DNA of 64,000 bases from Atractiella rhizophila (GCA_021432655.1 MU271180.1:161183-225182), one strand, 5' to 3'; positions 23,599-45,937 are shown, numbered from the stretch's first letter. The notes: generated from the sequence alone by a model not told the origin. Program-made: numbers and translations.

Positions 23599-24833
23599 TG
23601 GACATTATTGCATTCTCATTTCTCACAACCTATGTCATTTCGGTCTTGTGACCTTTTCTCTTTCTCTTTCTATCTTGTATTGCTTGATAATTGGCTCAAG
23701 GAAGGGCAAAAAAACAACTGTGATAATTTCTCACAAATATGTAAGACCCCTGCATTGTGAGTCCCATCACTTTTGTGGCTCGCATTTGCAGCTAAAGTTG
23801 TTTCTCTTAAGTAAGATTGAAATGTATTCTCATTGCTTTTCTTTTGTGGCTCGCATGTGAGATCCATATTTCGTCAAGACCCACACGCCTGCAAACGAAA
23901 TAAAGAAGCCAACGAGCTGACTCAATCATAGCGCTATAGTGTTAGCTCCTAGGCGTCTATAGTGACCAGGTGACAAGAACCCTATGAGCTATCATGATGA
24001 GATTAGGAGTGCGTGGCGAGACCGAAATAAGCAGTGGGTCTCGCACTTGCAGGGCAATTCTTCTTATAGCAAAGAAAGCTGAGTAATAAGAAAGCGCAAG
24101 CAAAGTGTGAAAGAAAGCCTTAAGACACACCAAACGTGATGGCAGGAGGAGGCGCAAGTGCTCCTGTGGCGTCCATAGGGCTCAGAGCTCCATAGATACC
24201 CGTCCAGAAAGTGCTGATGTGAAGGTCCTCATTCTTCTCAAGCAGCAGTGAATCAAGTGAAAACGATATTGAAGTTATAGGATCCTTCTTGTACTTTGTG
24301 ACATATATGCAACGAAATCCATTATATTAATCAAGACACTCTCATAGTTTACACATGTTGCACTGTAAACTTGAATCATTTGCCTGTTCTATCACATCCC
24401 ATCACCACCTCCTATCCAGCCTACAGTTTCACCATTCTAATGTTTAAGACAACCTTTCGGTTTAAGGAAAAATATGAGGAAAGAGGGAGGTAGATTGGAT
24501 GTTGTGGGTTGTGTGGAGCCGATCTGCACTAAACAGGGCAGGTTGACACAAAGGTTGACAAACGCATTGCCAAAGTGCCTTTGAGCTAAAGGACTTTGGA
24601 AGAAATATAGACTCATAAATAGTGCACAGATCTATGTCAGCAATGTAGCTCAAGTAGATTGAAATATTTTCATGTCACTTTGCTCCTTCCTCAACTCAGA
24701 TTAGGACTGCCATTAGAATGATGACCATACTCACTAGATTTCAAGCTGAATACTAGAACATTTGAGGGTCTGTGGTCCCAACACAGCTTGAACAGTCCAA
24801 GTCGCTTCAATGACCATCTGTTGACTCCCGGGC

Positions 24834-25720
24834 GTTAGGGCTGACACTATGTACAGTCGCCAATGGGTGATGCCTCTGTAGTGGAGATAAACCTAAGAAT
24901 AATATGACATGAGAAGACTAACCTGTAGTGGAGATAAACCTAAGAGAATACTCTAAGGTCATCACCACTACATCTTGATTTATATTTACATATGTAAGGG
25001 CACTACCATGAACTGTAAAGTGTGTCTCATGAAACATATAGAATGGCTGGATCATGAAAGCGACAAAGGGAATAATCAGAAATAAGACAATTGAGAAAGG
25101 ATGTCAAATGAAAACGGTGATGGTGCAGACCGACGAAACGTACAAGGCTTACTGAGCGGCGATTTGTATGAGAAGAGGGAAAGTGGTGATGGATAGACAC
25201 ATGATCCTATGAAGTAGGAAAGGTAGGTCACATGACTTAGGCCGGTGCATTTTGGTAATGTGCAGGAGCAAGCCTGTGTTAGGGCAAACACTATGTGCGG
25301 TCGCCGATGGGCGATGTGTCTGTAGTGGAGGTAAACCTAAGAGAATACTCTAAGGTCACCACCACTACGTCTCGATGTATATATACATAAGTAAAGGCAC
25401 TGCCATAAACTGTAACATACGTTGCTTGAAACGTGTAAGATAGCTAGATCAGGAAAGTAATAAAGGGAATACTCGGAAATAAGATATACTGGGTAGTACT
25501 AGTCAGAAAGGACAATAAGGCGAAAATGGAGACGGTGCAGATGCAGACCGGCGAAATGTACAAGGTTTGCTGAGCGGCGATTCGTGTGAGGAATGGAAAA
25601 GCGGCGAACAGCGCAGACCTGTACAGTGCGACAATGGGTAGGTATGTGATCTCATGATAAGTAAGGTAGGTCACGTGACCTCAGATAGTGCATTTCGGTA
25701 ATGCGTGGGGCAAGCCTGAC
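24834..25720. repeat. Two diverged ~445-bp direct repeats plus a partial internal repeat, each unit with a hairpin GTAGTGG..AGAG-AATA-CTCT..CCACTAC
   Basis: The motif tgtagtggagrtaaacctaag occurs at ~24876, ~24924 and ~25321, and gttagggc..acactatg at 24834 and 25278. Confidence 0.75.
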
Positions 25721-25849
25721 AGCCTGATCCTGGGACCTCGTTTTACCTGCATGCATTCAAGGAAATTGAAGAGAATGTAAGCAGATCCTTCATGTCATGC
25801 GAGCAAGTGGGACAGAGGCGGATGGAGTGGTGTCACAGACACACATGAT

Positions 25850-28800
25850 GAATGGGCAAAGTGGTAAGCTGTGATGCGGAGTGTAATGACAAGACCGTTC
25901 AGGTGATAAGAGGTTCAGTGAGGAAGGAGTGTAAGCGGGAGGGTGGAGAGAGACAAGATCTAGACAATAATAAAAGAAGAAATATTAAGACTGTCACATG
26001 TCTTCCCATCTTGTTCACTGATGGTATGCTGAAGAGAAGGACAACATACCTTAAACACTTCTCTGCTACCCCTCACATAGTCCAACACCTAAATGAGCAC
26101 AGTTCACAGAAACAACTCCCTCCAGGCTGATCCAGATTCCATAGTGGCAATGGGGATTTGTTGTACCAAGTCACAGCTAGGGCTTTGCACCGTCCCGTCT
26201 GTCGATTTTTGTGCCTGAGACGGCGACGGGACGGGTGACCCCGTCCCGTCACCCGCACCGTCCCTGAACACAGGGACTGTCTGATGGTGACGGGACTGTC
26301 ACGGCAAGAAAAGGGGTGCAGACGGATGGGTTTGACGGCGAACACGGGTGTTCAACAAAATGTTCCTTTATTCTGTCCGGCACCACCGGAATATCTCATT
26401 CATGCCATGTTCTAGCCACTAACTACTAATGCCGGCAAGCCTAGGCCTATTTGGCTGGGCGGAAAGGTGATTTGGTTGAGCCGGCTATGGCCCACATGCA
26501 GCTGGCCCACATAAGGTTAGGTTTGTAGTGACCCGGAAGTCCCTTCTGGCCGTTTCGGGCCATGCAAAGGAATGTTTGCTCTGCTGCAAACAAGAAAATA
26601 TGAAATTACGAAAAGCTTGCAGCAAAACAAGCAAAAAACCGGTAAAACAGGTTTAAAACTTAAAATTCATATATACCACCCATTGTTCCCTGTCTGACCC
26701 ATCATGGAAGCGCATGAGAGGGCTGACGGACGGGTAGCACCCATCCATTTATACCGTCTGTCGTCAAAAAATCAAAGTTGTGACGGTGACGGGACGGGTG
26801 GCCAAAAATGCCATCCGTCCGGGACCCGTCACCCGTCTTGACGGTGACGGCGCAAAGCCCTAGTCACAGCACTAGATTGTGGAAGGGGTGAGTTGGTCAG
26901 TTGAGATGCAGCTTCCATGTTCAGAAAGGATGTTGAGAGAAAGGGAAGGCTTGTACGAAGAAAGGGGAGTAACTGCAGAAAATTGGGCAAGGAGACGTTG
27001 AAGATGTTTGATGCGGATGGACTTGTGAAAATTTCAAAGAGGGCAACAGCCCCTAACCTGCACTGCCCCTGGCTGGCCCCTGTGGCAATGGAAATGTGGT
27101 GAGTCACTTTGGAGTCATGGATTAGTTTCAAAGTTTGCTTTAAAGTTTGCCATAGGTTGCAACAAGGTCTTCTAGCACCACAGGAGTGAGGGCATATGAT
27201 GAGCTGTGGACTACTAAGCGCTGGTGGAAGCTTCAAGTGAGTCTTCTTCATGTTATTCACTCACAAGAGTATCATACTCAAATGTTCTCAGGACTTGTTA
27301 CCCAATCACAACGGGTGCATTGGTGCCATCATCCTATATTCGGATGGGACGAACGCAGTGAAATTCGGACAAAAGACAGTTCACCCAATCTATATGTGGC
27401 TGGGGAATGTACCTTTACGAGAGAGGAGTGCTAGTGGAAAGGGAGGGTGCCAACTCATTGGCTTTCAGCCCGAAGTAAGTACAATAGCTTTCCCTATTAC
27501 TTTATGACATCGATGAACGAGCGAGTAGATTTCAGGTACAGAACAGCAGAAAAAAAACAAAAAGTTTCGCCTATATCGTCGCTCGGTCTAAAGTTTTGGG
27601 GATTGTCCTCAGGCAAATACGGCGATTTGAACAAGTGGGTTTCAGGGTTAGAGTTGGCAACGAGTTCGACAAGCTGGTGTTTCCACGCCTTTTCCTTTTG
27701 CAGGCTGATCTTGCAGAGCTGTACGTCGTTTCAAATCATTCGCAATGACATAAGTGACTACTACGACAAGTTACAATATGCTCCTCCTTCTTGGAGTTAA
27801 CTCTAAATTCAGATGTCCTGTTTGCCTTGTCCCCAAAGAACACCTCCACCTCATCTCTCATCAATTCCCAAAGAGAACAGTGGAACAGGCTCAATTTCAT
27901 CTGGAGCAATACCGGCAGACAGAACAGCACGACGGCGCAACTGCAGCGGTTAAAGAGTTGACAAGTACTTCGTCACTACGTCCTGAAAAGGTGCGTTACC
28001 ATCCTCTCTGCAGCTGGATCTTATGCCTCGGTAGTCTGCTTTCTATCGCTTGCGGTGTAGCGATGTTTATGATGCCATTGCAGCGGACTCATTACATGTT
28101 TTTGGTGGATTGTACAAGGATCACATTATGCAGAAGATTTTTGAGAAGCTATCGACAGCAAAGAATGAGAAGGTGGACTCATAGTGAGTAATTGTTTATG
28201 TAGATCCAGTTTGTTTATCAATTTTTATTACAGTCTCCTCTCCCTCCCTATGGCTCTTTACGTCATGTACCCAAACGAGGATTGACTAGCCTGGAGAGCT
28301 TTACCTGCATGGAAATTCAGGATACGATGAAAGTACCTCTCCGCTTCAGTATTGCTGATATCTAATCATAGAATTGGCAGTGCCTAATTGTTGCTATGAT
28401 CGGGATTCTTCCCGCTGAGATCGAACAAGAGGTTATTCCTGCCTTACGATCATTAGCTGTCTTCGAGCTTCTTGTCAAGATGCACGTTCAAGATGAAGAT
28501 CAAATCGCAGTGCTGCGAAATGAGAAGATTTTATCCTTTGAACCTGCTCTCACGGTACATTTCAAGTTTCTGAGGGAGTCTCTAATCCAATTTCCTAATG
28601 TTGGGGTTTAGACACTGCACGAGCATTTTGGCATGTCGACTAAATTTCCAAAGGGTCACCTACCTGTACATTTTGTTGACATGATCAGCAAAGGTGGAAC
28701 GCTGGACCATCAGACCACTGCACATGGGGAGCGAGCGCACCGTCCTCTCAAAGAGAACGTCATCGCTCGCGCTGTTCGCAGTACGATCGATGGAGAAACT

Positions 28801-29618
28801 GAAGAATCAGTGAGTTCACATATTCACAGTTAACTTTAGCTCAAGCAGGTACTCTTCGTGCATTTGAATTGATGCAGCTCCAAGCGATTCAACGACGGTT
28901 TGATGCAGCCAATGCATCGCGGCTTGACCGTGGTGCACAGGAACAACGTTCGCCTCAGCGTGAGACGTCAACTTTCTGTCTCTGCGGCTCGTCAAAGGAT
29001 TTTTATATTAAAGCCTACTTCTGCAAAATAGCAATAGAATTCAACACACGTCAAGATCTTATCAATGCTCTTCGACTCTTCCTCCTTCGGCTGATCAATC
29101 CTTCGACCCCAGTGCGTGTCCGCCAACAGCAGCTGCCGCAGATTGATCGGTCTATGGTATGTCCACCTTCAATTCAAGATAGTCATTGATGTATCTCCCA
29201 GATTTGTGATTACACGCTCTTCCGTTGCCCGTTCAACTCATGGATGGATGAAAGGGAGTACGAAGACCTCATCCGCTGCCACCCTGATTGGCAAACGAGC
29301 GGGAAACCACGCTACGACGATGTAATAATCAGAAATGAAGACTGCACTATCTCTTTTGGGCAACTAGTCCGTTTGTTTTCTTGTCGTGTGGATGGGCGGG
29401 AGTTCCAGCTGTTATTACTTCGTGAATACCAGTGGGTCGGAAGGCACCATTTGTCAGGGATGCCTTTCATCAAAGAACAGGAGGTATTCAGATTCCATCT
29501 TCCCACTAGTATTGTTCGCAGTTGCTATGTTCAACCAGATCCCATTGACGATGGTTTCTACCATGTCAATGATCTCGCAGAAGCAGATCTATTTCTTCGG
29601 TTTCAAAATTTATCCTAA
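25850..29618 (+). pseudogene. Plavaka-family transposase, multi-exon, disrupted by stops and a MITE
   Basis: Motifs RAYDELWTTKRWWKLQ, IILYSDGT..KFGQKTVHPIYMWLGNVP...GKGGCQLIGF, CPVCLVPK, KFPKGH, TAHGERAHRPLK and PRYDDVII are typical of Plavaka transposases. Confidence 0.8.
26178..26862. mobile_element. Non-autonomous hAT-type element (MITE), 685 bp
   Basis: TIRs TAGGGCTTTGCACCGTC / GACGGCGCAAAGCCCTA, a perfect 8-bp TSD GTCACAGC (26170-26177 and 26863-26870), and subterminal GACGG/CCGTC arrays. Confidence 0.92.
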
Positions 29619-29980
29619 TCATTAGGTTCACTATATATTGACTTGAAGTACATGCTCGTGTCGTAAAAATAACATTTTTCAGTCTCATTAATGATCAGTA
29701 CCTAACCGGGACCCATCAGATCATGCGTAGTCCATCATTCAGTCATCAGGCTTGACCATTCCTCTGTAGGTAGTGATCAGTACCCGTTCCCGTCCCCTCA
29801 GCCGTCAGGGGCCGTCAGGAAATGATCAGTCTTTAAAGCTTTTCATGACGCTTACATCGATCCGACTGAACGATGAACGATGTGATTCAAGGCAACTGCA
29901 GCCCGTCCCCTCCAACGAGGGTCCCACCACCAACCTCGTCCACCGCATACGTCACATGCACGTCTCTCACCCATCCAAGG

Positions 29981-31614
29981 CTATAACAGCACGCCGGCAC
30001 CCGCCACTCCCAACCCTACCATCACCGCCCCTCTCCATCCGACCTCCGCCATGCCAGCCCAACCGACCCTAAGCGTAGGAGCCCACGAATGCTCATACGG
30101 AGGAAGAGACGCCTCCGCTTGCGTCCCCTTCGGTCCTGGCCCATGTGTTCTCGTTGCATTAGACTGATTAGCGGCGAGGAGGGACATAGTAAAATTGCTC
30201 GTCAAATTGCTCCTCGCCAACGGCGCAAAGCCGACCGCGGGCGGATCGTACTGATAGACGCTGTACACGTTCTTGAGGAACGTGGCGCCGATCACCCAGG
30301 TGGTGATTGACTTTCCAAAGTGAAGAAGGAGCCGAGACAGCGCGTCTCGTCGGATGATGTGTAGGGACCGAGGTTGAAGTCGTCGGGGGTGATGTTGTAT
30401 GTTCGAGAACCGAAGGTTAGGGGCATGTGTACGGTCGTGTTGCAGGGGTAGGAGTAGTAGCCTTCGAATTCGCCCGTTGCTGGCGCGCTCCCTATCCATC
30501 AATCCCATCTCAGCAAACATCCTCAAGCAGTACCAGTAACCAACAGCAATAGTAGAAAACGACCAACCTGGGATGAGGCTATACAGCGCCTGAATAGCCG
30601 CTGCAGGTCCACCAACGAGTGTGGTCCTCGTATCAATAGCGACATTAGTACTCTTCACCGCCGTCAAATTAGTCCCATTGATAGCCATCCTCTCCAGGGG
30701 TACGACCCAATAACTGTCCAAATTATCGGGAATATCCACCCAGTCTCTCGCTCCCTCATACAGCGTCTTATTTGTCAAGCTGGTAGCCTCCGAACCCCGT
30801 CTCCTCGTACGGCGTCACGTTCAGCAGACGAGAGAAGGTGAAGGCGAAGTTGGGGAAGGGGAGCGCGTCGCGGGAGGTGCGGGAAAGGGAGGCGAGAGAC
30901 TGCCACCATGGTGTTTGGTCGGACGTCGCTAGTGAAGACCAGCCCATGCCTGCACATCCATCCACCACACATCAGTCAGTACACTTTGTCGAAACATAGA
31001 AAGGGGTGGAAGAGAACGACGAACCCATCAACCCGCTCACTTGGCCTTGAATCAGGTCCACTGATACGTTGTCGCACAGTGCAAAGCTCTGTTCTGATAC
31101 ATTGTACCCTGCTAGCTTCACCACGTCCGTGTAGAGCTCTCCGGTCGCGTTCCCAAGGCCGTAACGGATGAAGAAGGGTGTATTTGTAGAGGTGGAAGTG
31201 TTTGAGGAGGAAGGGAGGTACGAGGCGCCTTCTGCACAAGCTGTGCAGTTGGGAGAGGTCACCCACAGGTCTGCGGATCCCGTATCGAGTACGACATTGA
31301 AGGTTTGTGGAGGAGTGCCAATCTCTAACGGTGCCTGTTGCAATCATTCATTCCTAAGTAAGGCAAGACCTCACATAGGAATGAAGGGCGAGGACGCACA
31401 AAGTACTCCAAGTCCGCTTTATAATTCGTCAACTCGACCGTTCCCCCAGTGCTCGACTGCGTCTTCGTCGTCACTGTCCCAGTCCCAGTTCCAGTCATTC
31501 CAGTCCCTCCGCGGCCTCCATCACCAAAGGTAGGCGTGCCGTTCTGCTACCTATTCTTCACCCTCCTCTCTTGGTTCTCCCTGCTGTATTTGGGCTGTAA
31601 TCGTGCCATATTTG
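29981..31614 (-). pseudogene. A1 aspartic protease, copy A: 5'-truncated and frameshifted
   Basis: Lacks the signal-peptide region. The second catalytic motif is DTRTT instead of DTGTT. There is a 7-nt deletion at ~30320 and another deletion at ~30780 relative to copy B. Confidence 0.8.
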
Positions 31615-32135
31615 AGCGTCAGGCGAGAGTTGAGCGATGAGAGCAGCGACAGCTGCGAAAGGACCTGATTTATACCTCCTGCTTTCCCTGAGCTAGAGCT
31701 AGTCCCGTTCGAAGATGGAAAAGCGCCTTTGGCCTGGAGTTGCTCGATGACAGCCTCGAGCGCCTTGACATTTTCCCTGAATATCTCGATGTCGAACTTC
31801 TCGACTCGCGGGAGGGAGCGCTGGATGGACTCGAGCGTGTTGTCGAGTGTGGCGTTGAGCGTGGAGTGGGTGTGAGCGAGGTGGGCGGAGAGCGAGGAGA
31901 AGGTGGAGTCGAGCGAGTGGAGGGTCGATGATGGGGGAAGGAGGGAGTTGAGGTAGATGTGTGGGGGTGAGGTTGGCGCAGGGAAGGACACCTGAAGTTG
32001 TCTTGTCAGGGAAACAGCAGATGTCATATCATATCATAAAGAGGAAGTGGCTCACCACACCAATCGTCGTTTCTGGTCGTTTGCTGGACTTGACCACTTC
32101 CTGGTTCACAAATCAACAACGTGATTGCGACATGA
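31615..32135 (-). pseudogene. 5' fragment of COG7 at the duplication junction
   Basis: Matches 16126-16638 with scattered substitutions and runs out of frame into protease copy A. Confidence 0.8.
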
Positions 32136-32374
32136 GTGGCTGAAGCAGTTTGTACGGCAGAGATGACACAGCGGAGTTGACATTACTCGATTACTGTTTC
32201 AATATCTATATGTACTATACTAATGCTAATGTGCTTTATCTACTACGTAGTATAGAGGAATGATGAATGTCTACCAAAAATCGAGTTGCAACCGAAATAA
32301 GTTAGTTGTAAAAAACGATCGTGCGCTCATAAATTGAAAGCGAAGCTAAGTCTATCGCAGCCGCGATATTTTTT

Positions 32375-35300
32375 CTAACCAAGAGGAAACAGTGCTCGAT
32401 TTCGCGGTTCTTGACTAGTGTCGGAATTTGTAGAGGTGGAGGGTGGGGGAGTAATGTGATCGGGGTCAGCGACGTGCTCTTTACGGAAAGACGATATATA
32501 CGTGTTGTCCGTTGAGACTGAGGATTCGCCTGAGGGCATGACACGTTGCGTAGCAAGCGACTCGATGTTGGATGCCGCAGTATCAGTTAAAGGAGAAGGC
32601 ACCTTTTCGTTGTCGCTGGAGGCCGAGACAGGTGGAGGACTGTCAGATGAGTTGGGAGCGGCCGTATAGGCTAGGTGACGTGGGAGTTCCCTCTCCATGT
32701 CCGGATCCACAACCTCGTTCTTCTTCCCCGTTGCCTGATTGTAGGCCTTCAGAGATAGCTGTCGAATTTCGTGGACCATACGTGGCGGGTCGTTGGTATA
32801 ACTGTGTCCAGGACTTGAAACGTTACAGGCATCAACATCAGCGGGAATTATGAGAACGAAAAAAGAAGTGAAAAGAATACGCACAGAAGCATTATCCTAT
32901 TCCTCTTCTCCCTCGTCCCAATCCACACCTGCTCCTCCACACCTTCAAGCGCCATCTCCACCTCCTCATCCAACAGATCCGGAGGCAAAAAGTGAGATCT
33001 TGCGACTTTATCGAGCATCAGATCATGTCGTCTTTTCACCTTTCCAACCTCGCTCTCCACCTCAATGGTCATCTTCACCGTCCACTCGATCCCATCCAGC
33101 GATCCTCCGTCTGCGAAATTAGTGAAGGAGACATCTCGACCGACGTGACGACCGTTGAGGTAGGACTCAGTTTTGATCCGCATACACACTCGTTTGTCAG
33201 GATCTGAAGTCGGATTGACGAAAACCGCCAAACGGTTACCTGTCCCGTCGAAGACCAGTCTGACGTTCTATCGCCAAGTCAAGAGGAGGATCAGTTAGAG
33301 AGTGTTGGAGGAGAGGATGAGCTACGTACTTCTCTCGGAAACATCTCCGTTGCCTCCACCAACACCCTCTCCAACAGCTCAATACAGAGTCCAAAAGCCT
33401 GCTCCGCCTGCTGCACGCTCCCACAGGTAGCAGCGTCCATATCCTCGAGAGGTATATATTGGAACCCAAACCACTGTTTTCCATTATGATGCGCACAAAA
33501 GATGCCATCCATATTCCCAAGACGGGCTTGAAAGGAGTATTTGAGGAAGGCGTTCCGGATGAGATCAAAGTATTCTCGCTCAAATGATTCAAGCTCGCCC
33601 TCGCGTGTCGTTAGGCGGTAATACATTCCCGTCTACATCGTCGCAACGGATCAGGGAGAAGGGAAAGAGGGATGAAGATAAAGGACGAACCTGGTAGTTC
33701 ATTGGATCTATTCGCAAAGGCATCACAGCCCGCGTTTTAACGTCGAAAGCGGGTTTGGGCAAGTTTGGATTCCAACTATCGAGCTGTGAGCGAACAATGA
33801 GCCGTCCCACCTGTCGTCAATTTTATCAGTCTGCGATTGCCCAAGAGAAGAAGAGGAGGAGAATGAGCGCACTCTAGAATAGTGGTATACATGTTCCAGC
33901 TTCTCTGGTTGCTTCTCCTTCGGGCGGGTGAGCAGATAATCATCGAATTTGTCTCCCTCTGAAGTCAAGAGAGCTTCACCTAGGGTGCCCTAAAAGACCC
34001 TAGATTTGAGACCTACGAGGACTGATCAAAGAAAGGAAACTGACAAATTTAGAGAGCATATTGAACCAATGAACACCCGGCATGGCATCCGCATCCCTCT
34101 CCGTGTCCCACTTCGCCGCATCCACAGCGTACCTCCCTCCACCACCGTCCTCTCCCTCTCCGCCAGATTTGATCCGCACCAACTCCACCGCCGCCGGTTT
34201 CAATGCTCCACTCCCAAACGGCGTCTTCGATTCCCTAAACGAGGCATGTTTCAACATGGAATAGTTCGGTCCGGCCCTACTGAGTGATATGAAGATCTGT
34301 TCGAGAGGTCCTCCGACCTGGCTCGTCGACGAGACGAACATCGGCCCTGCTTCCTGGCGTGTGTGCTCTTTAGACTGCGAGTCTGCTCCTGCTCCCCCTC
34401 CAGCTTCGCGTTCTGACGGACAGCCGACCGGGACGAGGTCGAGGAGCTGCAGCAGTTTCTTGTCGCACGATGGTTTGGTGAAGGATCCAATGACGTCCCA
34501 ATCGACGTCCGCGAGCGGCGGTATCTCTACCGGGATATCAAAGTTCTTCACACCCGTCCTCGGGTCGACGAGCATGTGCAAGCCGGGATTGGTGAGGCAG
34601 CGCTCGAGGGCATGCTTGAGGCGAGGGAGGGTGGGGAAGTTGGGATGGGGAAGAAGGGGTTCGAGCGAGAGTGGCTCCAGCCTCGTGTTGGTGCTATTCC
34701 CATTCGATCGGGATCTGGAGGGCTTTTGAAATTCCATTCCTGGAGCTAGCGGCGGGAGAGACGAAGATGCTGGGTCCTCTGATATAGAACTTGGGAGAGC
34801 ACTACCATTGGGTTCCCGTTCCCGCTTCTGCTTCCCTGCCCTCGGATCCAATCCCATCTCCTTCTCTCCCTCCACTCCCTTCACACTCAGCATCTGCTTC
34901 GACAGCTCAAACAAGAAGCTCGCAGCCATGGGATAACCATCTCCTTCCTGTTGTTGCAGCACGCCTGATTGGTGCCCAATTTCCGAAGAGGCGGAGGGGT
35001 GGCTAGGTAGGAGGGATGCAGGATGGCCTCAGTGCCCCTGTGGAAGTCGGGTATGGAAGTTTTCGGCGCCTTGAAGCGGTCTGTAGATGTCTGTTCTTTT
35101 GACATCCGCACAATGTCAGCAAGGGAAGTTGAAGCGTCGTCTTCATGGCTATGGCTCGTACTCGCATTTTCCATCAATACCGTATCTGTTTGGACAGCCT
35201 TGAATAGGGACCTAATCAACCAACCAACACGTGGAGTTAAATTCTCCCAGTTTGAAGAGGAGAGAGAAAGTGAGAAGGAAAGGAGGACAAACATTCTCTT

Positions 35301-36329
35301 CTCCCGCAGCGCTTTCCTACTCCTCCAAGACTCCGGCTTCAACCTGCTCTGCAGCGTGAAGATCCGACCCCTCAGCCTCTGTATCCTCCTGTCCTTCTCC
35401 GGCGCCACCATCTTCCCCTCCAACACCACTATCTGCTTCCTCAGTTTGGCTATTTTCTTGAGCACCGCTTCTTCGTACTCTTTATAGTCGTCGCTTTCTC
35501 TTATTTCTTCCGCGTCGTCTCCTTCCGCCAATTGTCCATTTTGATATTGCGTGGGAGGTGGTACCGATGTTGATGCTGATGCTGAGGGTGATGTTGATGG
35601 TGCTTGCGATGAAGGAGCGAGCGAATTGATACCCGTACCAAAAGCGCGATACGACGAAAGGCCTTCAGCTCTCCACTGTACCTCCTTCACTCCACTTCCC
35701 TCCTCCTCCAGCTCCTCCTTTCCTTTACTACGTTCGATACCACCTTCCTCACGCCCGCGCTCCACAGCATGAACCGCAAGCCTCAAGAACGACCTCATAG
35801 CCCTCGCCTCGGATCGAAGCTGTTTCTCTATCTGCCGAAGATCGCGCAGGTCGCCCATGATGCGGTGGATGAGGTGTTGGATGTCATGTCGTGTATTTCC
35901 GAGCTCTCCTCCTCCTCTTCCTTCTACTTCTCCACTTGCACTTCCACCCGCAGTTTCTTTTCCCTCTTCATTTTCATTTTCTTTGTCGTTTTCGCGCCGA
36001 CTTCCACTCCCTCTTCTACTTTGTTCTTCAGCAACCCTCCCAACGAATCCACCCCTGACTACCCTACTAGTATGCCGTCCGCCTCTTCCTCTTCTACTTC
36101 TACCAATGGCGGCCATGTGACCCAGCGAAGAAACGGGAGGAGCAGATACCTGACTGGGGAGCGAGGTCGTCATTGGAGCCATGCTAGTGTTGGATAACGG
36201 GACTGGAGAGGGATATAAGGAGGCGAGGGAGGAGGAGTGGAACGCTCCATAGGTATACGTTGCCGTTGGTGTGCTAGTGTGGAGGGAGGCGCTGGTCGAA
36301 GCATGGAGGAGGGTGGAGAGACGCTTCAT
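32375..36329 (-). CDS. PET127: Pet127-like, copy B (multi-exon; apparent 1-nt frameshift in a G-run near 34995)
   Basis: Same Pet127 core motifs as copy A and colinear with it. Confidence 0.85.
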
Positions 36330-37073
36330 TGCGCTTTTTCGACAAAATATAAGAAGTGATTATAATCGTTATGAAAACATTTCTTTCGCATCCGAATATC
36401 AGAGATAGAGATCAGATAGGAATAGCCCTGGATAAACACCACAGTGCAAAAATGTCAAGGAGTCATGGTGTGAGAACATGACTCATATTCAGAGTTCCAA
36501 ATTCACCATTGCCCTTTGACCGCGAACGTTTGAGGTGCTCACGCTACGCAAAGCAAACTAGCTTCAACAATCGACGACGAGAGTTTTGTTTGTTAAGGAA
36601 AACCGTCATCTCAAATATTCAAGTGATCGGGAGAGTATATTTCAGTTGGCGAGCACGGAAAGTAGTTCCTCTGTCAGTATTCTCCTTTGATGGCGGAAAG
36701 GGATGCAAGTGGGAGCGATCTTAATAAGCGCCTGACTACCGTTGAACTTCTTTATAGAGGTCGAAGCGGAGCAGTCTGTTCGCGATCTCGAGTTTCATCT
36801 GTCACAGTGAACGTACGTGTTGACGGAGGAATGGATTCCAAATAGCCTCTACGTCTCTTTGTGGAGAATATTAGTTGTGGTATCCATGAAATATCCAGAT
36901 GGGAAATATTGAGCGTCAAGGCGGTTTGATTGATGAACTCGCCAACATGCTATGCTTTTGAGGATTACCTGCAAACCATGGAAGCTGATGAAATTGGTGC
37001 TAGGACCCATTCGAACTCACGCATTTTTCTTCTTCCTTCAAATTTTTGGCACTATTGACGCTTCCGACCCTGG

Positions 37074-40000
37074 ATGTCAACGATCGCCTTGCAATCTAAC
37101 CCTTTACTGTCCGCCCATATGTCTGCAGATCATTCCGTCAAGATCTTCAAGGTCCCTGAGAACATCAAGAGAGAGAATCCCTTGGGATTGCGAATCCTTT
37201 GCATTGATAGCGGGGACATGCGCTCCTTTGCACCGTACATGCTGGAACACATCATGACTCAAGTTGCACATCTTCTTGATGTGCCTATTGACGAGGAGCT
37301 TCGCCCGTGCGATATATTTGATCTAACCTGTGGAACTTCAACAGGCGGATGGATCGCGCTCATGCTTGGGAGGCTGGGAATGACTGTTCGCCAGTGCATT
37401 ACGGCATGTGAAGAAATCGCGCAGAAAGTGTCCCGAGAAAACACCTCGATCTCGAGTGGCGAGTACGTTTACTCGGCGGAGAAGCTTGAAGAGACTTTCA
37501 TCGCTATCATCCAACGGCATATGAACACTTCTCACGATTCTGCGAAATTGCTATCTATGAAAGATGATTCTGTGCAAGACAGATGCAAAACTTTCATCGT
37601 TTCTACCTGCGGGGCCAATGTCGCCGTTTCTACGGAGTTGCGCACCTACGATATTCACGATGCTGCCTCCTCTTCGGGTTCCCCTGCTTCCACTTGTATG
37701 GTCTGGGAAGCTGCAAGAGCCACTGCTGCACGCCATCCCTTCTTTCCTCCTCTCATCATGGATTCCATTAGTCACGTTGGCCTGGGTGGCGACAACCCTA
37801 CGACAATAGCCCTTGAAGAAGCGAAGCGAATCTGGGGACACGGTGGTGAGATCGCCTGCCTTGTGTCCCTCGGTTCTGGCATTACGCCTGCCATCCAGTT
37901 GTGCCACACTCGAGATGACGTCGCACGAGCATTGGAGACCATAGTCGTGGATTGCTCAAGGGTTTCGAACGACGTGAATGTTATCATGCGAGACCGGAGG
38001 ACGGGGCATTGCTACCACCGTTTCTCGGTCGATACATTCCGAGATTTCAAGTGGCAGGACTGGGAGCGAAAAAATGATGTTGCCGGCTGTACAAAGGCTT
38101 ACATGGAAGCGATGAATCATGACGTGTTGAGTGCTGCTCGATGTCTGGTGAAAGGTACATACCGCATCCTTGGTACTTGCATGCTAACTTTTGTTCATTA
38201 GAACGCGAAGATCGTGTCATAGCATATGGGAAGATTCCTTTACCTCCTCCAACGGCTTGTTATGGGAGAGATGAGGAAGTTGGGAAGGCGATAGAATTCA
38301 TCCTTAAGGACAAGAAGCACATTGCTATTATTGGCAGCATAGGTAACGGGAAGTCTACTGTGGCACTGAAAGTCCTGCATGCAGACCAGATCAAGGATGA
38401 ATTCACAACCGTGATGGATGGTAAGGAAGAAGACTTTCGTTTTTGGGCACGATGTGATGCCTTCTCAACCTTCTCCTCTCTCTCCTCCCACCTTCGCAGG
38501 AACGTTTTTGGATTAGCTCGTGGACGTGGTGACGAAGACCTTGGGACAGTCACACGATATTTGAACACTCACAAGTGTCTTCTAATCTTGGATGATTTTT
38601 GGATCACCGCTCAGCTTGATGAGAATAACCTACAGCCATTCTTTCAGGCTCTTTTTTCAACCAGATGGAGCTCTGGTTCCATTCTTGCCATAGTACACCG
38701 TGGCGAGCAGGCTATGCGTGTGAATGTGCAAGGTGTGAGATTTGGAGCGCTGAGGATTGGAGGCTTGAGCCACCATGTTGCACTGGGTATGTTCAAATAT
38801 ATGCACGTCCCACAGAAAGAATATACCGAGGATGATGCACGGCTAATCAGGACCATTATCGCCAAGCTGGATTATCATGCCATGTCCATCAACCTCTTCA
38901 TTCGTTATGCCAATGCAGAACCAACCAAGGGACTAAAACATCTACTGGAAGAGTGGGACGCAAATAAGGCAAATTTCTTTTCGAGCGAGGAAGAGGTCAG
39001 CCTTGAAGCCTCAATGTCTTTTACAATCAATGCACTTGGTCGCAGAGAAGATCGTGATCTTTGTACTTTTATCCTCGGCCTGTTATCGTGGAGTCCTGAT
39101 GGTCTTCTTGCTGAAGACATTGTAGCAATGGCGGATAACTCCGAACCTCATCGCTCAGGACAGTCTTCCATGATCATCACCTCAATCTTAAGTGCTGGAC
39201 TGGCTGAAGATGTTACTGATGCCCTAACGAATTCTGTTCGAGTGCGTATGCTGGTCCCAATTCGTCGATATGTCAATAGCTTGGTCTTGCGTGCCAATCC
39301 ACCTTCTACAGCCGGGGGGGTATGTCTTGAAAAGTTAGCTGAAGCCCTCATTGATAAGGCTCGTGCAAATGCTCAACGATTCAAGGATGGTGTTGAAAAG
39401 ATGGGACTGCTATCCTTTCGCAGCGATTGTTCCAACCTTGAACATGTCCTTATGGCTGCTTTCGAACACCTCAATGATCTGACAACTGTTCTCAATTTCT
39501 TAGTAGAAATTTGGGAATTTATGCATCATCAAAACCTCCTCTCAGTAGCATTGGTCCAGTGTGCTCTGTCCTACACAACATTTCATCATATGTCTCCAAT
39601 CACAGCCGAATTGACTAGGGCTCTTGGGTCAGTTTTTCAACAGAAGGGAAACACACAACAGGCGCTGAGACAATTTGAAGAGGCGAGGGAGTTGTTTTTG
39701 CTGGTGGGAGATCAGCATGGTGAGGCCCACTGCATTCGTAGCATGGCGGAGGTTGAGCAGTCTCATGGACAGTATAATGAGGCACTGAAGCGGTTGGAGG
39801 AGGCAAAGAAGCTGTATCTGTGGGTTGAAGATCAGCGTAGCCAGGCGCACTGCATTCGGAGCATGGGGGAGATCAAGCAGTCTTGTGGACAGAACGATGA
39901 AGCACTGAAGCGGTTGGCGGAGGCAAAGGAGCTGTATCTGCGGGTTGAAGATCAGTTTGGCCAGGCACACTGCATTCACAGCATGGGGGAGATCGAGCGC

Positions 40001-41968
40001 TGTCGAGGGCAGCTCGAGGAAGCACTAGTACTGTTGGAAAGGGCGAAGGAGTTGTATCTGGTGGTGGAAGATTGGCATGGCCTTGCCCACTGCATTCACA
40101 GTATTGGGGAGATTGAGCAGCATCGTGGGCAGATTCAAGAAGCCATGAAACAATTTGAAGAGGCGAGGCGGGTGTATCTGCGGGTGGAAGGTCAGCATGG
40201 GGAGGCCCGCTGCCTTCACAGCATGGGGGAGATTGAGCGACATCGAGGCCAGATTGGGAATGCCTTAAGACATTTTGAAGAGGCAAGGGAGTTGTTTTTG
40301 CTGGTGGGAGATCAGCATAGTGAGGCTCACAGCATTCGCAGCATAGGGGAGGTTGAGCAACATCGAGGACGGATTGTAGAAGCAGTGCAATGGCTTGAGA
40401 AAGCAATGGAGGTGTATCTGTTGGTGGAAGATCAGTGTGGCGAGGCTCACTGCATTCGTGGCATGGGGGAGATCAAGCAACATGAAGGGCAGTTTGAGGA
40501 AGCACTGATACAATTTGAGAAAGCAATGAAGCTGTATCTGCAGGTAGAAGATTGGCATGGGCAAGCCCACTGCAATCGTGGCATGGGGGAGATCAAGCAA
40601 CATCAAGGGCAGTTTGAGGAAGCACTGATACAATTTGAGAAAGCAATGAAGCTGTATCTGCAGGTAGAAGATTGGCATGGGCAAGCCCACTGCAATCGTG
40701 GCGTGGGGCAGATCAAGCAACATCAAGGGCAGTTTGAGAAAGCACTGATACAATTTGAGAAAGCAATGAAGCTGTATCTGCAGGTGGAAGATCGGCATGG
40801 GCAAGCCCACTGTGTTCGTGGCACAGGGGAGATTCAGCAACATCGAGGGCAGACCGAAGAAGCACAGAAACTGTTTGAGGAAGCCAGGAAGTTGTATCTG
40901 CAGGTGGAAGATCGGCATGGTGCGGCCGACTGCATTCGCAGAGTAGGGGAGATCGAGCAACACCGAGGGCAGTTTGAGGAAGCACTGAAACAGTTTGAGG
41001 AGGCAATGAAACTGTATTTGCTGGTGGACGATTGGCACAGTGCGGCCTGCTGCCTTTGCAACATGGGGGAGATCGAGCAGCTTTGTTGGCGAAATGAGAA
41101 GGCATTGAAATGGTTTGAGGAGGCAAAGCAATTGTATGGCCAGTTGGAAGATTGGCAAATGGCTGCCAACTGCATTCGCTGTATGGGGGAGATCGAGCAA
41201 CATCAAGGGCGGGTCGAAGAAGCAGTGAAACTGCTCAAGGAAGCGATGGGGCTCTATCTGTTGGCAGGAGATCTGCATGGCAAGGCTCACTGCATTTGTA
41301 GCATGGGGGAGATTGAGCAACATCAAGGGCGGATTGAAGAAGCAGTGAAACTGCTTGAGGAAGCGATGGGGCTCTATCTGCTGGCAGGAGATCTGCATGG
41401 TGAGGCTCACTGCATTCGCAGCATAGGGCAGATTGAGAGGCATTGTGGGAGAAACAAGCAGGCACTGAAACTGTTTGAGAAGGCGGACCGGTTGGGTCGA
41501 GGACATGAAGATGTGTACACTGTCACCCGTCGCATTCATACCATGGCCAAGATTGCACACGTTCACAGGTGCACTGAGGTGGCAATAAGTCGATTCAAGG
41601 AGGCGAAGGGTCTTTATTTGGACTTGAAAGATGTTAAGGGTCAACTCAACTGCCTTGAAGACTTGGGTTCTGTTTACATTCAGGACCGCCAGTTCCTAAA
41701 AGCAGTCAAGGTTCATGAGGAAGCAATCGATTTGAGCAGGAAAGTCAGCAGGCACTGTGAGGCTATTGCCAGAGAGAAAATGGTTGAACTACTCCTCTTC
41801 AAACTGTCAAAATACACTGATGTGAACAAGGAACTTGAATATGCCCGTCAGCTTTGTATTAAAAGCTGTGCAACGTCAGGGATACCATTTTGTGTTGTAA
41901 CAATGCACCTTTCTTCATCTCTTCCTATCTCATCTAACATAGATCTATGTCTTAGGGACCAGACTTAA
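37074..41968 (+). CDS. Fungal NLR-like protein: patatin-like domain + NB (NB-ARC/NACHT-like STAND) + ~18 TPR repeats; intron 38155-38201
   Basis: GTSTGG patatin motif. The intron gtacat..gctaac..tag joins the two ORFs in frame. Walker A GSIGNGKST, Walker B LLILDD, RVRMLVPIRRY motif, then 40-aa TPR units. Confidence 0.9.
39605..41764 (+). repeat. Intragenic array of ~18 x 120-bp (40-aa) TPR units
   Basis: Consensus AHCIRSMGEIEQHxGQxEEAxKxFEEAxxLYLxVEDxHGx. Units 8-10 (~40445-40804) and 14-15 are nearly identical in DNA. Confidence 0.95.
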
Positions 41969-43596
41969 CTGCATGTGCCCATCTCATCAGCCCAACAGCA
42001 TACACCGCTTCCCTGCATCTGTCCATTCTTCCTTCTTTCCTATTTCATCTGCCACGGTCAATTCACTCCCTCCGGATCACCTTTGTCTTACCTCTTAGAC
42101 ATGCTTATCACTCTCCTGCAAATGTGTCCTCGAAATTATTCTATTTCTCCCTTCCAAGCCTCCTACATTCATTCGGAAACAGGGCCGAACAAGATGGTAG
42201 AGCGGATCTTTGCGTTAGGTTCGATCTTGAAAATGTCACAGTCAAATTTGGGAACGGCGAAGAGTTTTCAGACCATGAATTCCAAGGAGTAAGGAGTGTG
42301 TTTTCTCGCACATTTCCTCTTCTTTCCGATTGGTCGCAGGCAATCTTTGCCCCTGTTGCCTCATACTCTGTGGCCAAAAATGGTTTTGTCCCTATCACGG
42401 ATAATGAATCGTCATCCCTCGTATCCTTCCATCAAGCTGTGAGCCTTATCCAACTCTCATTTTCCCCTACTACAAAGGATAGGACATGCTTTATCTCATG
42501 CTTGCCTCCTGAGCTGCTCTCCTTCATTTTCAGTTGTCTTGTGGCAACAGGGGATGCAAATTGGAACATCTCCCGCATCTGCAAGCACTGGAGTGTTGTT
42601 TCAGCCCCCTATTGGAAGGAACCTTATTCTGTGTTGAAGAAGCATACACGTTTAAAACTGTATGCTGATTCTGGACGTCTGTGGAAGCAACTCCAGTTTC
42701 GACAATGCATGGATGTTAAGATGGTGGAAGTGGTCATCTTGGGTTCGCCGAATGTTACGAAGGTATGGCTGGACGCATTTTGGAGTGAAGAGGAGGCTAC
42801 AATGGTGTTAAATGCAATTGGGGGCTTGCCAAAGCTGGAGGTTGTAACCTTTGGACATATGGGTTCAAGACAATGGAGGAAGCAGGAGGTAGAGGACTTC
42901 ATGCAGAGGATGAGGGGGACGATTGTACAGCTCTCCATTCAGGCAGCAGAAGACTATTCCTCCTTCTCTCCCTCCTTCATGGCATTAGACAGTCGTCGAT
43001 TACCTCCTGGCTCCATATCCCTAACGCTCTTAACATATCCACCTTTCGTACGGCTCTCCCTCCCACACACTCTCCTTGAACCGAGCCTCACCACCCCGAG
43101 TCCTCTCCCAACCTCGATGTCAAGCTCCCCTCTGCCAGCTCATCTAAAATATCTGACAATCGAGCTTACCGGCACCTTGCCTGATGGAAATACCTCCATC
43201 CCGCCCAGACCTCTCGACTCTAGACCGCTCAACTTATCACGGCTCAAACAACTGACCTACCTCAACCTCGATGGTGGTGAGGAAACTTCGAACCTAGTTT
43301 GCGCCCAGTTTTTCAGGAATCTCAAACATGCCGCAGTGATTGAACATATATCCATTGCTTACTGTGCGGTAAAGTGTTCCGATTTGCTCTCTTTCATCCC
43401 CTGGTTCTTTGAAGTTCAGCGGCTGGAGCAGGCTGGAGTTGGACAGATGAATGAGACAAGTGAACCGGTGTTACGTGTTCTCTTATTCTTTGGAGATTGG
43501 TATCAAGAAGATATTTTGGCTACCAGGACGGTGATGGAAGGGTGTGGAGTAGGCGAGGGCTATAATTCGTCATGGGTAAAGGAGTCTGGAGAATAA
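41956..43596 (+). CDS. F-box + LRR-like domain reading frame (separate gene or last exon of the NLR)
   Basis: ISCLPPELLSFIFSCL...ISRICKHWSVVSAPYW is an F-box, followed by leucine-rich segments (LSRLKQLTYLNLDG). The frame is open from 41956 with no ATG before the F-box. Confidence 0.75.
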   Translation, partial: GPDLTACAHLISPTAYTASLHLSILPSFLFHLPRSIHSLRITFVLPLRHAYHSPANVSSKLFYFSLPSLLHSFGNRAEQDGRADLCVRFDLENVTVKFGNGEEFSDHEFQGVRSVFSRTFPLLSDWSQAIFAPVASYSVAKNGFVPITDNESSSLVSFHQAVSLIQLSFSPTTKDRTCFISCLPPELLSFIFSCLVATGDANWNISRICKHWSVVSAPYWKEPYSVLKKHTRLKLYADSGRLWKQLQFRQCMDVKMVEVVILGSPNVTKVWLDAFWSEEEATMVLNAIGGLPKLEVVTFGHMGSRQWRKQEVEDFMQRMRGTIVQLSIQAAEDYSSFSPSFMALDSRRLPPGSISLTLLTYPPFVRLSLPHTLLEPSLTTPSPLPTSMSSSPLPAHLKYLTIELTGTLPDGNTSIPPRPLDSRPLNLSRLKQLTYLNLDGGEETSNLVCAQFFRNLKHAAVIEHISIAYCAVKCSDLLSFIPWFFEVQRLEQAGVGQMNETSEPVLRVLLFFGDWYQEDILATRTVMEGCGVGEGYNSSWVKESGE

Positions 43597-44106
43597 TGTG
43601 TGTTTTTGTTTCTAATGAAGGACCATCTGTCTAACGTGCCACCGCTTGCAGTGCTATGGAGCAAGTTGGGACTGGACGTCCTGAGGTTCCGCACTAGTTT
43701 CGAGCACGATGACATGAAAGGTGGCAACATTGGAACCGTCAGAGCTGGGTTGGCGCGCCTATCCATTGCGCATTCTTCTTCAACAAAAAGAACACTTGAA
43801 TCTTGAATCAGTACTCAATTTGTACTCAAAGTACTCAAGGCTTGTCGGCATCAGAGAAGGGAAGGGTAGGTAGGGAAGTGAAGGAAAATCATAAATAATA
43901 CTATTAAACACACGTCCTCCAAGTACCTCAAACGTCTCAACCTGATATATTATATGTTACATCCTTTCACTTACACCGATCCGACTGAAGGATGAACGAT
44001 GTGATTCAAGGCAACTGCAGTCCGTCCCCTCCAACGAGGGTCTCACCCACCACCCACCGTCATCCACCACCTCACGCGTCACATGCACCTACATCTCCAT
44101 CCAAGG

Positions 44107-45937
44107 CTATAATAGCACGCCCGCACCCGCCACTCCCAACCCTACCATCACCGCCTCTCTCCACCCGACCTCCCCCACGCCCGCCCAACCAACCCTAAGC
44201 GTAGTAGCCCACGAATGTTCATACGGAGGAAGAGACGCCTCCGCCTGCGTCCCCTTCGGTCCCGGCCCATGCGTTCCCGTAGCATTAGACTGATTAGCCG
44301 CGAGGAGGGACATTGTAAAGTTGCTGGTGAGGTTGCTCCTCGCCAACGGCGCAAAGCCCACCGCGGGCGGGTCGTACTGATACACGCTGTATACGTTCTT
44401 GAGGAACGTGGCGCCGATCACCCAGGTGATGATTGACTTTCCAAAGTCGAGGGTGAAGAAGGAGCCGAGACAGCGCGTCTCGTCGGATGATGTGTAGGGG
44501 CCGAGGTTGAAGTCGTCGGGGGTGATGTTGTATGTTCGAGAACCGAAGGTTAGGGACATGTGTACGGTCGTGTTGCAGGGGTAGGAGTAGTAGCCTTCGA
44601 ATTCGCCCGTTGCTGGCGCGCTCCCTATCCATCAATCCCATCTTAGTAAACATCCTCAAGCAGTACCAGTAACAAGTAGCAATAGCGGTATAGAAAGCGA
44701 CCAACCTGGGATGAGACTATACAGCGCCTGAATAGCCGCTGCAGGTCCACCAACGAGTGTGGTCCCCGTATCAATAGCGACATTCGTGCTCTTCACCGCC
44801 GTCAAATTAGTCCCATTGATAGCCATCCTCTCCAGGGGTACGACCCAATAACTCTCCAAATTATCGGGTATATCCACCCAATCGATCGCTCCCTCATACA
44901 GCGTCGTATTTATCAATCCCATGCTGAAGTAGCCTCCGAACCCCGTCTCCTCGTACGGCGTCACGTTCAGCAGACGGGAGAAGGTGAAGGAGAAGCCGGG
45001 GAAGGGAAGTGCGTCGCGGGCGGTGCGGGGGAGGGAGGCGAGAGACTGCCACCACGGTGTTTGGTCGGACGTCGCTAGTGAAGACCAACCCATGCCTGCA
45101 CATCCATCCACCACACATCAGTCAGTACACTTTGTCGAAACACAGAAAGGGTGGCAGAGAAAGACGAACCCATCAGTCCGCTCACTTGGCCTTGAATCAG
45201 GTCCACTGATACGTTGTCGCACAGTGCAAAGCTCTGTTCTGATACGTTGTACCCTGCTAGCTTCACCACATCCGTGTATAGCTCTCCGGTCGCGTTACCC
45301 AGACCATAACGAATGAAGAAGGGTGTGTTTGTGGCTGTGGAAGTGTTTGAGGAGGAAGGGAGGTACGAGGCGCCTTCTGTGCAAGCTGTGCAGTTGGGAG
45401 AGGTCACCCACAGGTCTGCGGATCCCGTATCGAGAACGACATTGAAGGTTTGCGGAGGAGTGCCAATCTCTAACGGTGCCTGTTGCAACCACTCATTCCT
45501 AAGCAACCCAAGACACCATGTAGGGATGAAGGGGGAGGACACACAAAGTACTCCAAGTCCGCTTTATAATTCGTCAACTCGACCGTTCCCCTCGGGATCG
45601 GTTTCGACGTCGCAGTGCTCGACTGCGTCCTCGTCGTCCCCGTCCCAGTCCCAGTGCCCGTCCCCGTTCCCGTTCCAGTCCCTCCGCCGCCTCCATCACC
45701 AGAGGTGGGCGTGCCGTTCTGCTGCCTCTTCCTCACCCGCCTCTCTTGGTTCTCCCTGCTGTATTTGCTCTGTAGTCGTGCCCTATTCCCCGCGGCCCAA
45801 CGTCCGATTTCAGGTCGAGATTGCCGTTTGGCGGCTGGAGGGAGCAGGGCTGGGTGTCGGACGGTTGGGTAGGATTGGGAGTGGGACGGTGCGGTGAGGG
45901 AGAGGAGGAGGAGGAGGAAGAGTTCGAGCGAGACCAT
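44107..45937 (-). CDS. Secreted pepsin-like (A1) aspartic protease, possibly GPI/membrane anchored, copy B (intact)
   Basis: Signal peptide MVSLELFLLLLLSLTAP, KR site, Gly-Thr repeat, VVLDTGSADLW and AIDTGTT catalytic motifs, WVIGATFLKNVY and a hydrophobic C-terminus. Confidence 0.9.

Follow-up and report, generated by a model that had tools for sequence, protein, structure and literature searches.

A patatin/NB-ARC/TPR gene of the NLR type and a truncated copy of it in a duplicated locus of Atractiella rhizophila

PLP-1 of Neurospora crassa, a NOD-like receptor (NLR), combines a patatin head, an NB-ARC-type nucleotide-binding oligomerisation domain (NOD) and a tetratricopeptide repeat (TPR) sensor in one polypeptide. 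According to papers citing the original work, cell death caused by PLP-1 requires both the patatin domain and the P-loop, the protein oligomerises, and it acts with a 'nearby' sec-9 gene. The nearest systems, next to PLP-1 itself, are Podospora HET-Z and the patatin NLR encoded at the vic2 locus of Cryphonectria. In the survey of Dyrka et al. (2014), Patatin occurs almost invariably with NB-ARC and NB-ARC preferentially with TPR, and no NLR is recorded in Pucciniomycotina. Here, an NLR with the PLP-1 order of modules is described from Atractiella rhizophila (Pucciniomycotina, class Atractiellomycetes). It is encoded at positions 37,074 to 41,968 of a stretch of 64,000 nucleotides (GCA_021432655.1 MU271180.1:161183-225182), referred to below as the window. 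The locus is best explained as an intact fungal NLR from a lineage-specific Atractiella family that would, by analogy with described systems, work as an NLR-type switch with cell death or defence as its output; a probability of roughly 0.6 is assigned to this reading.

Two open frames on the + strand of the window, 37059-38201 and 38123-41968, overlap at 38123-38201, and excision of the intron at 38155-38201 fuses them into a coding sequence for a protein of 1615 amino acids with zero internal stops. The parts of the gene are as follows.

37074, + strand: start codon (ATG) of the NLR; its stop codon is at 41966-41968.
37074..38154, + strand: exon 1, encoding the patatin-like domain (amino acids 1-360) and the first base of codon 361.
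38155..38201, + strand: intron of 47 nt, with GTACAT at its start, a TGCTAAC branch site 18 nt before its end and TTAG at its end.
38202..41968, + strand: exon 2, encoding the NOD and the TPR array, stop codon included.
36673..36757, + strand: probable intron of 85 nt (GT..AG) in the 5' untranslated region of the NLR transcript, marked by the joint 36672>36758 in one contig of read run X3.

The two-exon gene is real and its frame is intact. The truncated copy upstream has an intron of the same 47-nt length with the same signals at 22743-22789. In addition, the Atractiella protein P0062 spans the NLR splice unbroken, its residues 1-149 corresponding to 37638-38168 and its residues 148-561 to 38213-39454.

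Positions 26001-46000 were compared with contigs from the runs X1, X2 and X3 (two samples) and from a soil metagenome, X4. Runs X1-X3 hold 0.77-0.85 of the sampled words of the NLR, and X4 holds 0.05, in 5 short pieces. Contigs equal to unique parts of the NLR (38242-39715 and 41071-42048, with 0 differences) occur in X1, X2 and X3, and the gene is therefore not an assembly chimera. With these parts free of differences, the three runs amount to one strain-like data set. In run X3, three introns of the aspartyl protease next to the NLR are absent (the joints end in CT..AC), and the run thus looks cDNA-like; since it also contains 38229-39316 with 0 differences, the NLR may be transcribed, insofar as a run of unrecorded kind can suggest it. 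The intron at 36673..36757 probably belongs to this transcript. In all three runs, the summed contig depth of the patatin exon (37340-38673) is 3-5 times that of the unique NOD stretch; the runs may hold extra copies of the 5' half that are at least 90% alike, alleles, or overlapping unitigs.

That the protein has the three-module patatin/NB-ARC/TPR architecture is very nearly certain. Pfam assigns Patatin (PF01734) to the head with 34.6 bits (cut-off 27.7), NB-ARC with 24.3 bits to the centre and TPR_12 with 313.5 bits to the C-terminal part, and the predicted folds agree with this order, which is the one put forward in the original prediction. The features asked of a fungal NLR are present together: an NB-ARC NTPase with Walker A and B motifs, a C-terminal TPR array and an N-terminal effector of a catalogued type (Patatin). 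The modules and motifs downstream of the head are located as follows.

38204..39613, + strand: NB-ARC-type module of the signal transduction ATPases with numerous domains (STAND), amino acids 362-831, assigned from Pfam, profile and fold.
38333..38359, + strand: Walker A, GSIGNGKST (Lys411), intact in the translation; G/G/G/K nearly invariant in A2, an alignment of relatives of the NOD-TPR module.
38579..38602, + strand: Walker B, LLILDDFW (Asp491-Asp492), intact; the first Asp is the sole invariant column of A2.
39581..41740, + strand: TPR array of 18 units of 40 amino acids (amino acids 821-1540), of which the well-kept 15 lie at 39701-41500.

The original prediction had named the central domain a STAND NTPase, and NB-ARC in Pfam, profile, fold and Walker motifs all bear this out. 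A profile built from 30 NOD-TPR relatives finds AfsR (8k60) at 9.3e-37, along NOD and TPR alike, and ZAR1 (6j5t), in its NB-ARC part, at 4.5e-17. The model of the NOD has a predicted local distance difference test score (pLDDT) of 89.0, and its leading Foldseek matches are NRC2, ADP-bound Apaf-1, the NRC1 NB-ARC domain and CED-4; NOD2, a NACHT protein, first appears at rank 40. The arrangement of nucleotide-binding domain, helical domain 1 and winged-helix domain is thus one that the NLR has in common with Apaf-1, CED-4, NRC2, NRC1, ZAR1 and Streptomyces AfsR, and with AfsR it also has the NOD-TPR order in common; in these solved NB-ARC STAND proteins, however, the N-terminal effector and the ligands are unlike those of the Atractiella NLR. 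Among the 30 family members, Pfam finds NB-ARC in 18, nSTAND1 in 14 and NACHT in 11. Other death-type N-termini stand before the same NOD-TPR module in several of them (SIR2_2 in 7/30, MLKL_N in 2/30), and the module is also found in bacterial proteins; such head exchange is the usual effector swapping of NLRs. The site that, aligned by eye, we take to match the MHD motif reads MLVPIR in the NLR.

Tandem Repeats Finder detects the TPR array with a period of 120 nt (14.8 copies, 77% match, 0 indels). In the 40-residue register, 15 units are clear (amino acids 861-1460) and 3 are degenerate; most TPR motifs of fungal NLRs, by contrast, are 42 amino acids long according to Dyrka et al. (2014). 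Pairwise identity of the 15 clear units averages 55% in amino acids (38-93%) and 71% in DNA (maximum 97%), so that the 18 units of the original prediction stand, the three degenerate ones included, while their supposed high identity does not. Only units 1141 and 1181 exceed 85% (92%); the pair 1101/1141 is at 85% and 1101/1181 at 78%. The 3 differences between units 1141 and 1181 are all nonsynonymous. High internal repeat conservation is defined in the same survey as more than 85% identity across at least 100 amino acids, and the 15 clear units stay below this level. The units at 39701-41500 carry conserved His6, His10, Cys11 and His21, Cys11 being present in 14/15, and the family consensus, bacterial relatives included, has AxCxxxLG with a conserved Cys each 40 residues. 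Such a Cys/His-rich TPR face is unusual; metal or redox sensing by it would be pure speculation.

The head is predicted to have the three-layer α/β/α patatin fold. Its AlphaFold model (13 input sequences) has a pLDDT of 73.6 and a predicted template modelling (TM) score of 0.82. The best structural matches in Foldseek are effectors of cyclic-oligonucleotide-based antiphage signalling systems (CBASS), CapE (9ioq, the best, E 5.4e-13) and CapV (8zr9), with E from 5e-13 to 1e-11, query-normalised TM scores of 0.58-0.63 and identities of 15-16%. Potato patatin itself (1oxw) follows at E 4e-11 and TM 0.65, and human iPLA2beta (6aun) at E 7.6e-10. As stated in the titles of their entries, CapV and CapE are immune effectors that form filaments upon activation; their trigger is a cyclic nucleotide, whereas the NLR has a fused NOD. 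Both are presumed to possess the full Ser/Asp dyad. The corresponding sites in the NLR are these.

37332..37346, + strand: nucleophile elbow GTSTG (G87-T-S89-T-G91); Ser89 is kept and GxSxG is present in the alignments.
37206..37226, + strand: degenerate glycine-rich (oxyanion) loop, D45-S-G-D-M-R-S51; relatives have DGGGxRG.
37770..37799, + strand: site of the DG[GA] motif of the catalytic Asp, S233-HVGLGGDNP-242, with Asp missing from the dyad position.

The Ser/Asp dyad is described in the literature as the conserved catalytic device of the patatin fold. In a MAFFT alignment of 62 rows, made up of 60 patatin-bearing hits and both copies in the window, Ser is present in 24 rows and Asp in 26; both are found in 17 rows, which include the named ascomycete proteins, Ser only in 7, Asp only in 9 and neither in 29. 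In the Atractiella clade (the two window copies and 4 public proteins), Ser is kept in 6/6 rows and Asp in 0/6, its column holding Asn in the upstream copy and, in the four public proteins, Ala (twice), Leu or a gap. The 29 heads with neither residue are mostly from Mycena latifolia, together with two from Termitomyces and one from Flagelloscypha (among P0013-P0049), and they still belong to long, open proteins of the NLR type. A literature search found no paper on patatin heads missing both dyad residues in NLR-type proteins. The Agaricomycete patatin/NB-ARC/TPR proteins (Mycena latifolia, Termitomyces, Hypsizygus) have the three-part design in common with the Atractiella NLR at a patatin identity of only ~30%; unlike most of the Mycena rows, which are without Ser and Asp, the Atractiella NLR retains Ser.

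The NLR appears to be a lineage-specific Atractiella member of the known patatin/NB-ARC/TPR class. The origin of the window itself is indicated by an eIF5 gene.

55749-57148, - strand: eIF5 gene, including the open reading frame (ORF) 56101-57027.

This ORF is 98% identical to an A. rhizophila protein (exons 52/52 and 30/30; in the middle piece 3 mismatches in 345 columns, with 18 gap columns), in agreement with the basidiomycete host that had been proposed. The closest public relatives of the NLR are all from A. rhizophila, at 42-50% identity for the head and 33-38% for the NOD. In particular, KAH8928614.1, KAH8928804.1 and others (annotated as 'FabD/lysophospholipase-like' or 'TPR-like') have the missing Asp and the patatin-NOD junction in common with it. 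The Atractiella family comprises 9 or more public proteins in addition to the two copies in the window. When the NOD was scanned with HMMER against 1.84 billion cluster representatives, 269 matches reached E<=1e-3, of which 16 passed E<=1e-10 and 6 passed E<=1e-30; none of those representatives matched with at least 50% identity, the best reaching 38%, and the NLR and its upstream copy are therefore missing from the deposited protein sets. The deposited set is without the NLR although the eIF5 of the window is nearly identical to the A. rhizophila protein. In that scan, an RPM1-type protein of a plant is the first match to the NOD from outside Atractiella. Of the 60 patatin-bearing hits, only 3, all of them from Atractiella, match the NOD by phmmer, and orthology with PLP-1 is therefore not indicated. 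NOD relatives with other heads fit modular assembly better than descent from a PLP-1-like ancestor, as far as the comparison of sequences can suggest. A literature search found no report of NLRs in Pucciniomycotina later than the 2014 survey.

The NLR lies in a duplicated region with a transposon relic, as anticipated in the original prediction, and a truncated copy lies ~15.4 kb upstream of it. The elements of this region, including the neighbouring genes, are listed here.

21659..23598, + strand: truncated copy of 630 amino acids with patatin and the beginning of the NOD (exon 1 21659-22742, intron 22743-22789, exon 2 22790-23598).
16122..31612, no strand: duplication unit A, from self-blastn.
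31613..45787, no strand: duplication unit B, with a COG7 5' fragment, Pet127, the full-length NLR, the F-box-like ORF and the aspartyl protease.
23520..29851, no strand: stretch private to A, 6.3 kb of repeats with the Plavaka relic; B has the remainder of the NLR and the F-box-like ORF there.
27241-27504: decayed Plavaka transposase (PF18759; 34.4 bits, cut-off 26.3), adjoining the truncated copy.
13065-16656, - strand: COG7, 20 kb from the full-length NLR.
33294-36359, - strand: Pet127.
41956-43593, + strand: F-box-like ORF of 546 amino acids, private to B, which begins at the NLR stop codon; weak match (E 9.8e-4), below the cut-off.
44110-45563, - strand: aspartyl protease.

The frame and stop codon of the truncated copy are confirmed. 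It matches the full-length protein by tblastn with 78.4% identity over 361 amino acids in the patatin part and 61.0% over 259 amino acids in the first half of the NOD, and tblastn finds nothing in it that matches the NLR past that point; Pfam recognises Patatin (43.4 bits) and NACHT (34.4 bits). The truncated copy that had been predicted 15 kb upstream is thus present, whether it is a paralogue or the other haplotype being left equally likely. Self-blastn pairs 16122-16640 with 31613-32135 (90.4%), 16718-23520 with 32135-38929 (89.3%) and 29851-31612 with 43970-45787 (90.1%). The first 0.5 kb of COG7 is repeated at 31613-32135, and it is at the 5' end of COG7 that the duplicated unit has its left edge. 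The A-private and B-private stretches show no similarity to each other, and the F-box-like ORF has no second copy in the window. In steps of 300 nt, the two units are 92-99% identical over Pet127 and intergenic DNA (78% in a single step), and identity along the NLR runs through 90, 84, 81, 86, 75, 69 and 54%. By the Nei-Gojobori method, nonsynonymous (dN) and synonymous (dS) divergence between the copies is 0.113 and 0.348 in the patatin part (dN/dS 0.33) and 0.266 and 0.568 in the NOD (dN/dS 0.47), and dS is 0.09-0.30 in the Pet127 and protease pieces, with 0.55 in one 58-codon piece. Because dS is also raised, the divergence peak at the NLR is not explained by faster protein evolution alone. 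In the A-private stretch, 24923-25189 and 25320-25607 are direct repeats that are 75% identical. At 26001-27334, the summed contig depth in X1 is 4381-8260, against ~147 for unique NLR contigs, which marks a high-copy repeat beside the Plavaka relic. At 33209, 33223 and 36099, most or all X1-X3 contigs read another letter than the window, whose consensus therefore departs from the reads in places even where the runs agree with it otherwise.

How an intact NLR of this kind might act can be proposed from the steps established for PLP-1 and for STAND/NLR proteins in general. The array of 40-residue TPR units would keep the NB-ARC switch closed until a ligand binds; nucleotide exchange would then lead to oligomerisation, which would gather the patatin-like heads, and these, by damaging or remodelling membranes, might cause cell death in response to non-self or danger. 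An oligomerisation-driven death output, as in PLP-1, would be expected also for the Atractiella NLR. The killing step is the weakest of the proposed mechanism: the effector step is the least secure part of the usual model because Asp is missing, the glycine loop is degenerate and death by PLP-1 reportedly needs a functional patatin. Several observations weigh against the reading of the locus as an intact, working NLR. In the head, the glycine loop reads DSGDMRS, with 2/3 Gly substituted and Arg50 preserved, and does not match DGGGxR/K; the column of the dyad Asp holds Gly236 in the full-length protein in the 62-row alignment, and in a pairwise HMMER alignment to iPLA2beta, which is weak (E 0.13), His234 takes that place. 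The Pfam NB-ARC match is marginal, at 24.3-25.8 bits against a cut-off of 23.5 (24.3 for the whole protein, 25.8 for the NOD piece), and the NOD of the upstream copy matches NACHT (34.4 bits) instead of NB-ARC. The joint 38154>38202 is absent from the 15 read joints listed for the contigs of the runs against 26001-46000, and splicing of the NLR therefore rests on indirect evidence. A comparison of the copies gives no sign of overall positive selection, dN/dS being below 1 everywhere it was measured. Finally, over 105 pairs of TPR units the mean proportion of synonymous differences (pS) is 0.465 and pN/pS is 0.52, values that do not suggest a sensor whose repeats are shuffled fast.

Canonical phospholipase chemistry is considered unlikely for the head; to judge from its residues, it may work as a lipase only poorly or in a non-canonical way, or may act without catalysis. 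A tentative alternative of some weight is that the head is a pseudo-enzyme, either binding membranes or serving as a scaffold without catalysis, or belonging to a regulatory or decoy member of the family. The loss of Asp from all six Atractiella rows speaks for it, as does the scarcity of the dyad in the alignment at large, where 29/62 rows have neither residue and only 17/62 have both; dyad loss is common in the listed basidiomycete proteins, and their reading frames are nonetheless open. However, Ser89 and the GTSTG elbow are preserved throughout the Atractiella clade (6/6 rows), a sign that the head may retain some chemistry, and Asp240, nearby in sequence, might stand in for the missing Asp. 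A very improbable alternative is an allorecognition pair of the PLP-1/SEC-9 type, in which the NLR would guard a linked trafficking protein such as COG7. The domain order of PLP-1 is matched, divergence between the copies is highest at the NLR, and NLR/SNARE systems are reported to have arisen in four fungi. Unlike in the PLP-1 system, no gene of a SNARE (soluble NSF attachment protein receptor) family is found near the Atractiella NLR: Pfam detects none in 337 of the 451 ORFs of at least 60 amino acids in the 64-kb window (E<=1e-3; 1e-4 in part), the immediate neighbours of the NLR being Pet127, the F-box-like ORF and the aspartyl protease. COG7, a Golgi tethering subunit and not a SNARE, had been proposed as the guarded protein; it proves to be only a neighbour, 20 kb off, whose 5' end marks the boundary of the duplication and whose duplicated 5' piece (92-94%) differs no more than other flanking DNA. 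The incomplete patatin dyad and the NOD, unrelated by phmmer to the patatin hits from outside Atractiella, also count against such a pair. The Atractiella NLR differs from PLP-1 further in its degenerate glycine loop, its 40-residue TPR units and its phylum. The original view of the gene as a counterpart of PLP-1 thus survives for the architecture of the class and finds no support in SNARE linkage or in a complete dyad. The PLP-1 analogy would accordingly be valid for architecture only, and nothing in the sequence appears to tie the NLR to the Neurospora cell-death system.

The relation between units A and B bears on the meaning of the truncated copy, and two explanations are about equally likely, each with almost an even chance. 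Units A and B may be the two haplotypes of one locus in a dikaryotic or diploid strain, placed in tandem by the assembler, with a full-length allele and a truncated, transposon-bearing one. Alternatively, a true tandem segmental duplication of ~15.4 kb may have been followed by transposon-associated loss of the 3' half of one NLR and by faster divergence of the NLR or exchange with other members of the family. Zero-spacer tandem duplications occur five times in the window, A/B included; the four others are 4161-5739/5738-7292 (95.9%), 8334-10917/10914-13522 (97.1%), 13423-13787/13799-14163 (97.8%) and 48422-49552/49564-50694 (96.0%), and they are probably either assembly artefacts of heterozygosity or very recent duplications. 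The flanks of A and B, 92-99% identical, are mostly within the range of these four pairs. The case for haplotypes is strengthened by COG7, which is broken into two frames by a duplication with a period of 376 nt (8/365 positions differ) and becomes an ORF of 1072 codons when one unit is deleted; this looks like two alleles written consecutively by the assembler, and it casts doubt on every tandem repeat in the assembly, a true duplication of A/B included. Moreover, in an X3 contig that agrees with B starting at 31613, the letters ahead of this point match COG7 16092-16121 (2/30 differences) and not the DNA that stands before 31613 in the window. Idiomorphic het alleles of Aspergillus fumigatus, described as full-length and stub-only, offer a precedent. 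Yet an identical layout of the two units is what a true tandem duplication would be expected to give, and around Pet127 there are contigs with roughly twice the depth that match neither copy exactly, so that more than two versions exist. Likewise, two loose ends of X3 (43847 and 31973) have no counterpart in the window even when 3 mismatches are allowed, and the runs therefore contain versions that are missing from it. The layout and the identities are compatible with a tandem duplication, as are the intron and open frames retained in both copies up to the breakpoint; stretches private to A (29201-30026) and to B are both present in run X3 with 0 differences, and NLR genes are frequently clustered and duplicated. 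What a simple duplication accounts for less well is that dS in the NLR (0.35-0.57) exceeds that of most flanking coding pieces (0.09-0.30; one 0.55). A more specific form of the haplotype explanation, in which A and B are idiomorph-like alleles, full-length and transposon stub, held by long-term balancing selection with a head that acts non-canonically, is considered improbable.

Two further genes were found towards the ends of the window.

54199-54750, - strand: ribonuclease T2 gene (80 bits).
1-1652, + strand: pieces of a fungal-type protein kinase gene (Pkinase_fungal, 55.4 bits at most), at the left end of the window.

The gene class to which the Atractiella NLR belongs is not new, its architecture having been catalogued since 2014 with PLP-1 as the best-studied member. 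An NLR family in Atractiella is modestly new, because it belongs to Pucciniomycotina, where the 2014 survey found none; the sharp divergence peak over the NLR is a modestly new feature of the locus. The incomplete dyad in the whole Atractiella clade and in most of the listed Agaricomycete relatives raises the question of how such heads act. If A and B are alleles, the rise in divergence, which is 1-8% in the flanks and 10-46% inside the NLR, would be the narrow footprint expected under long-term balancing selection, and the locus would resemble the idiomorphic het loci of Aspergillus fumigatus; it would then be a candidate recognition locus in an endophytic basidiomycete.

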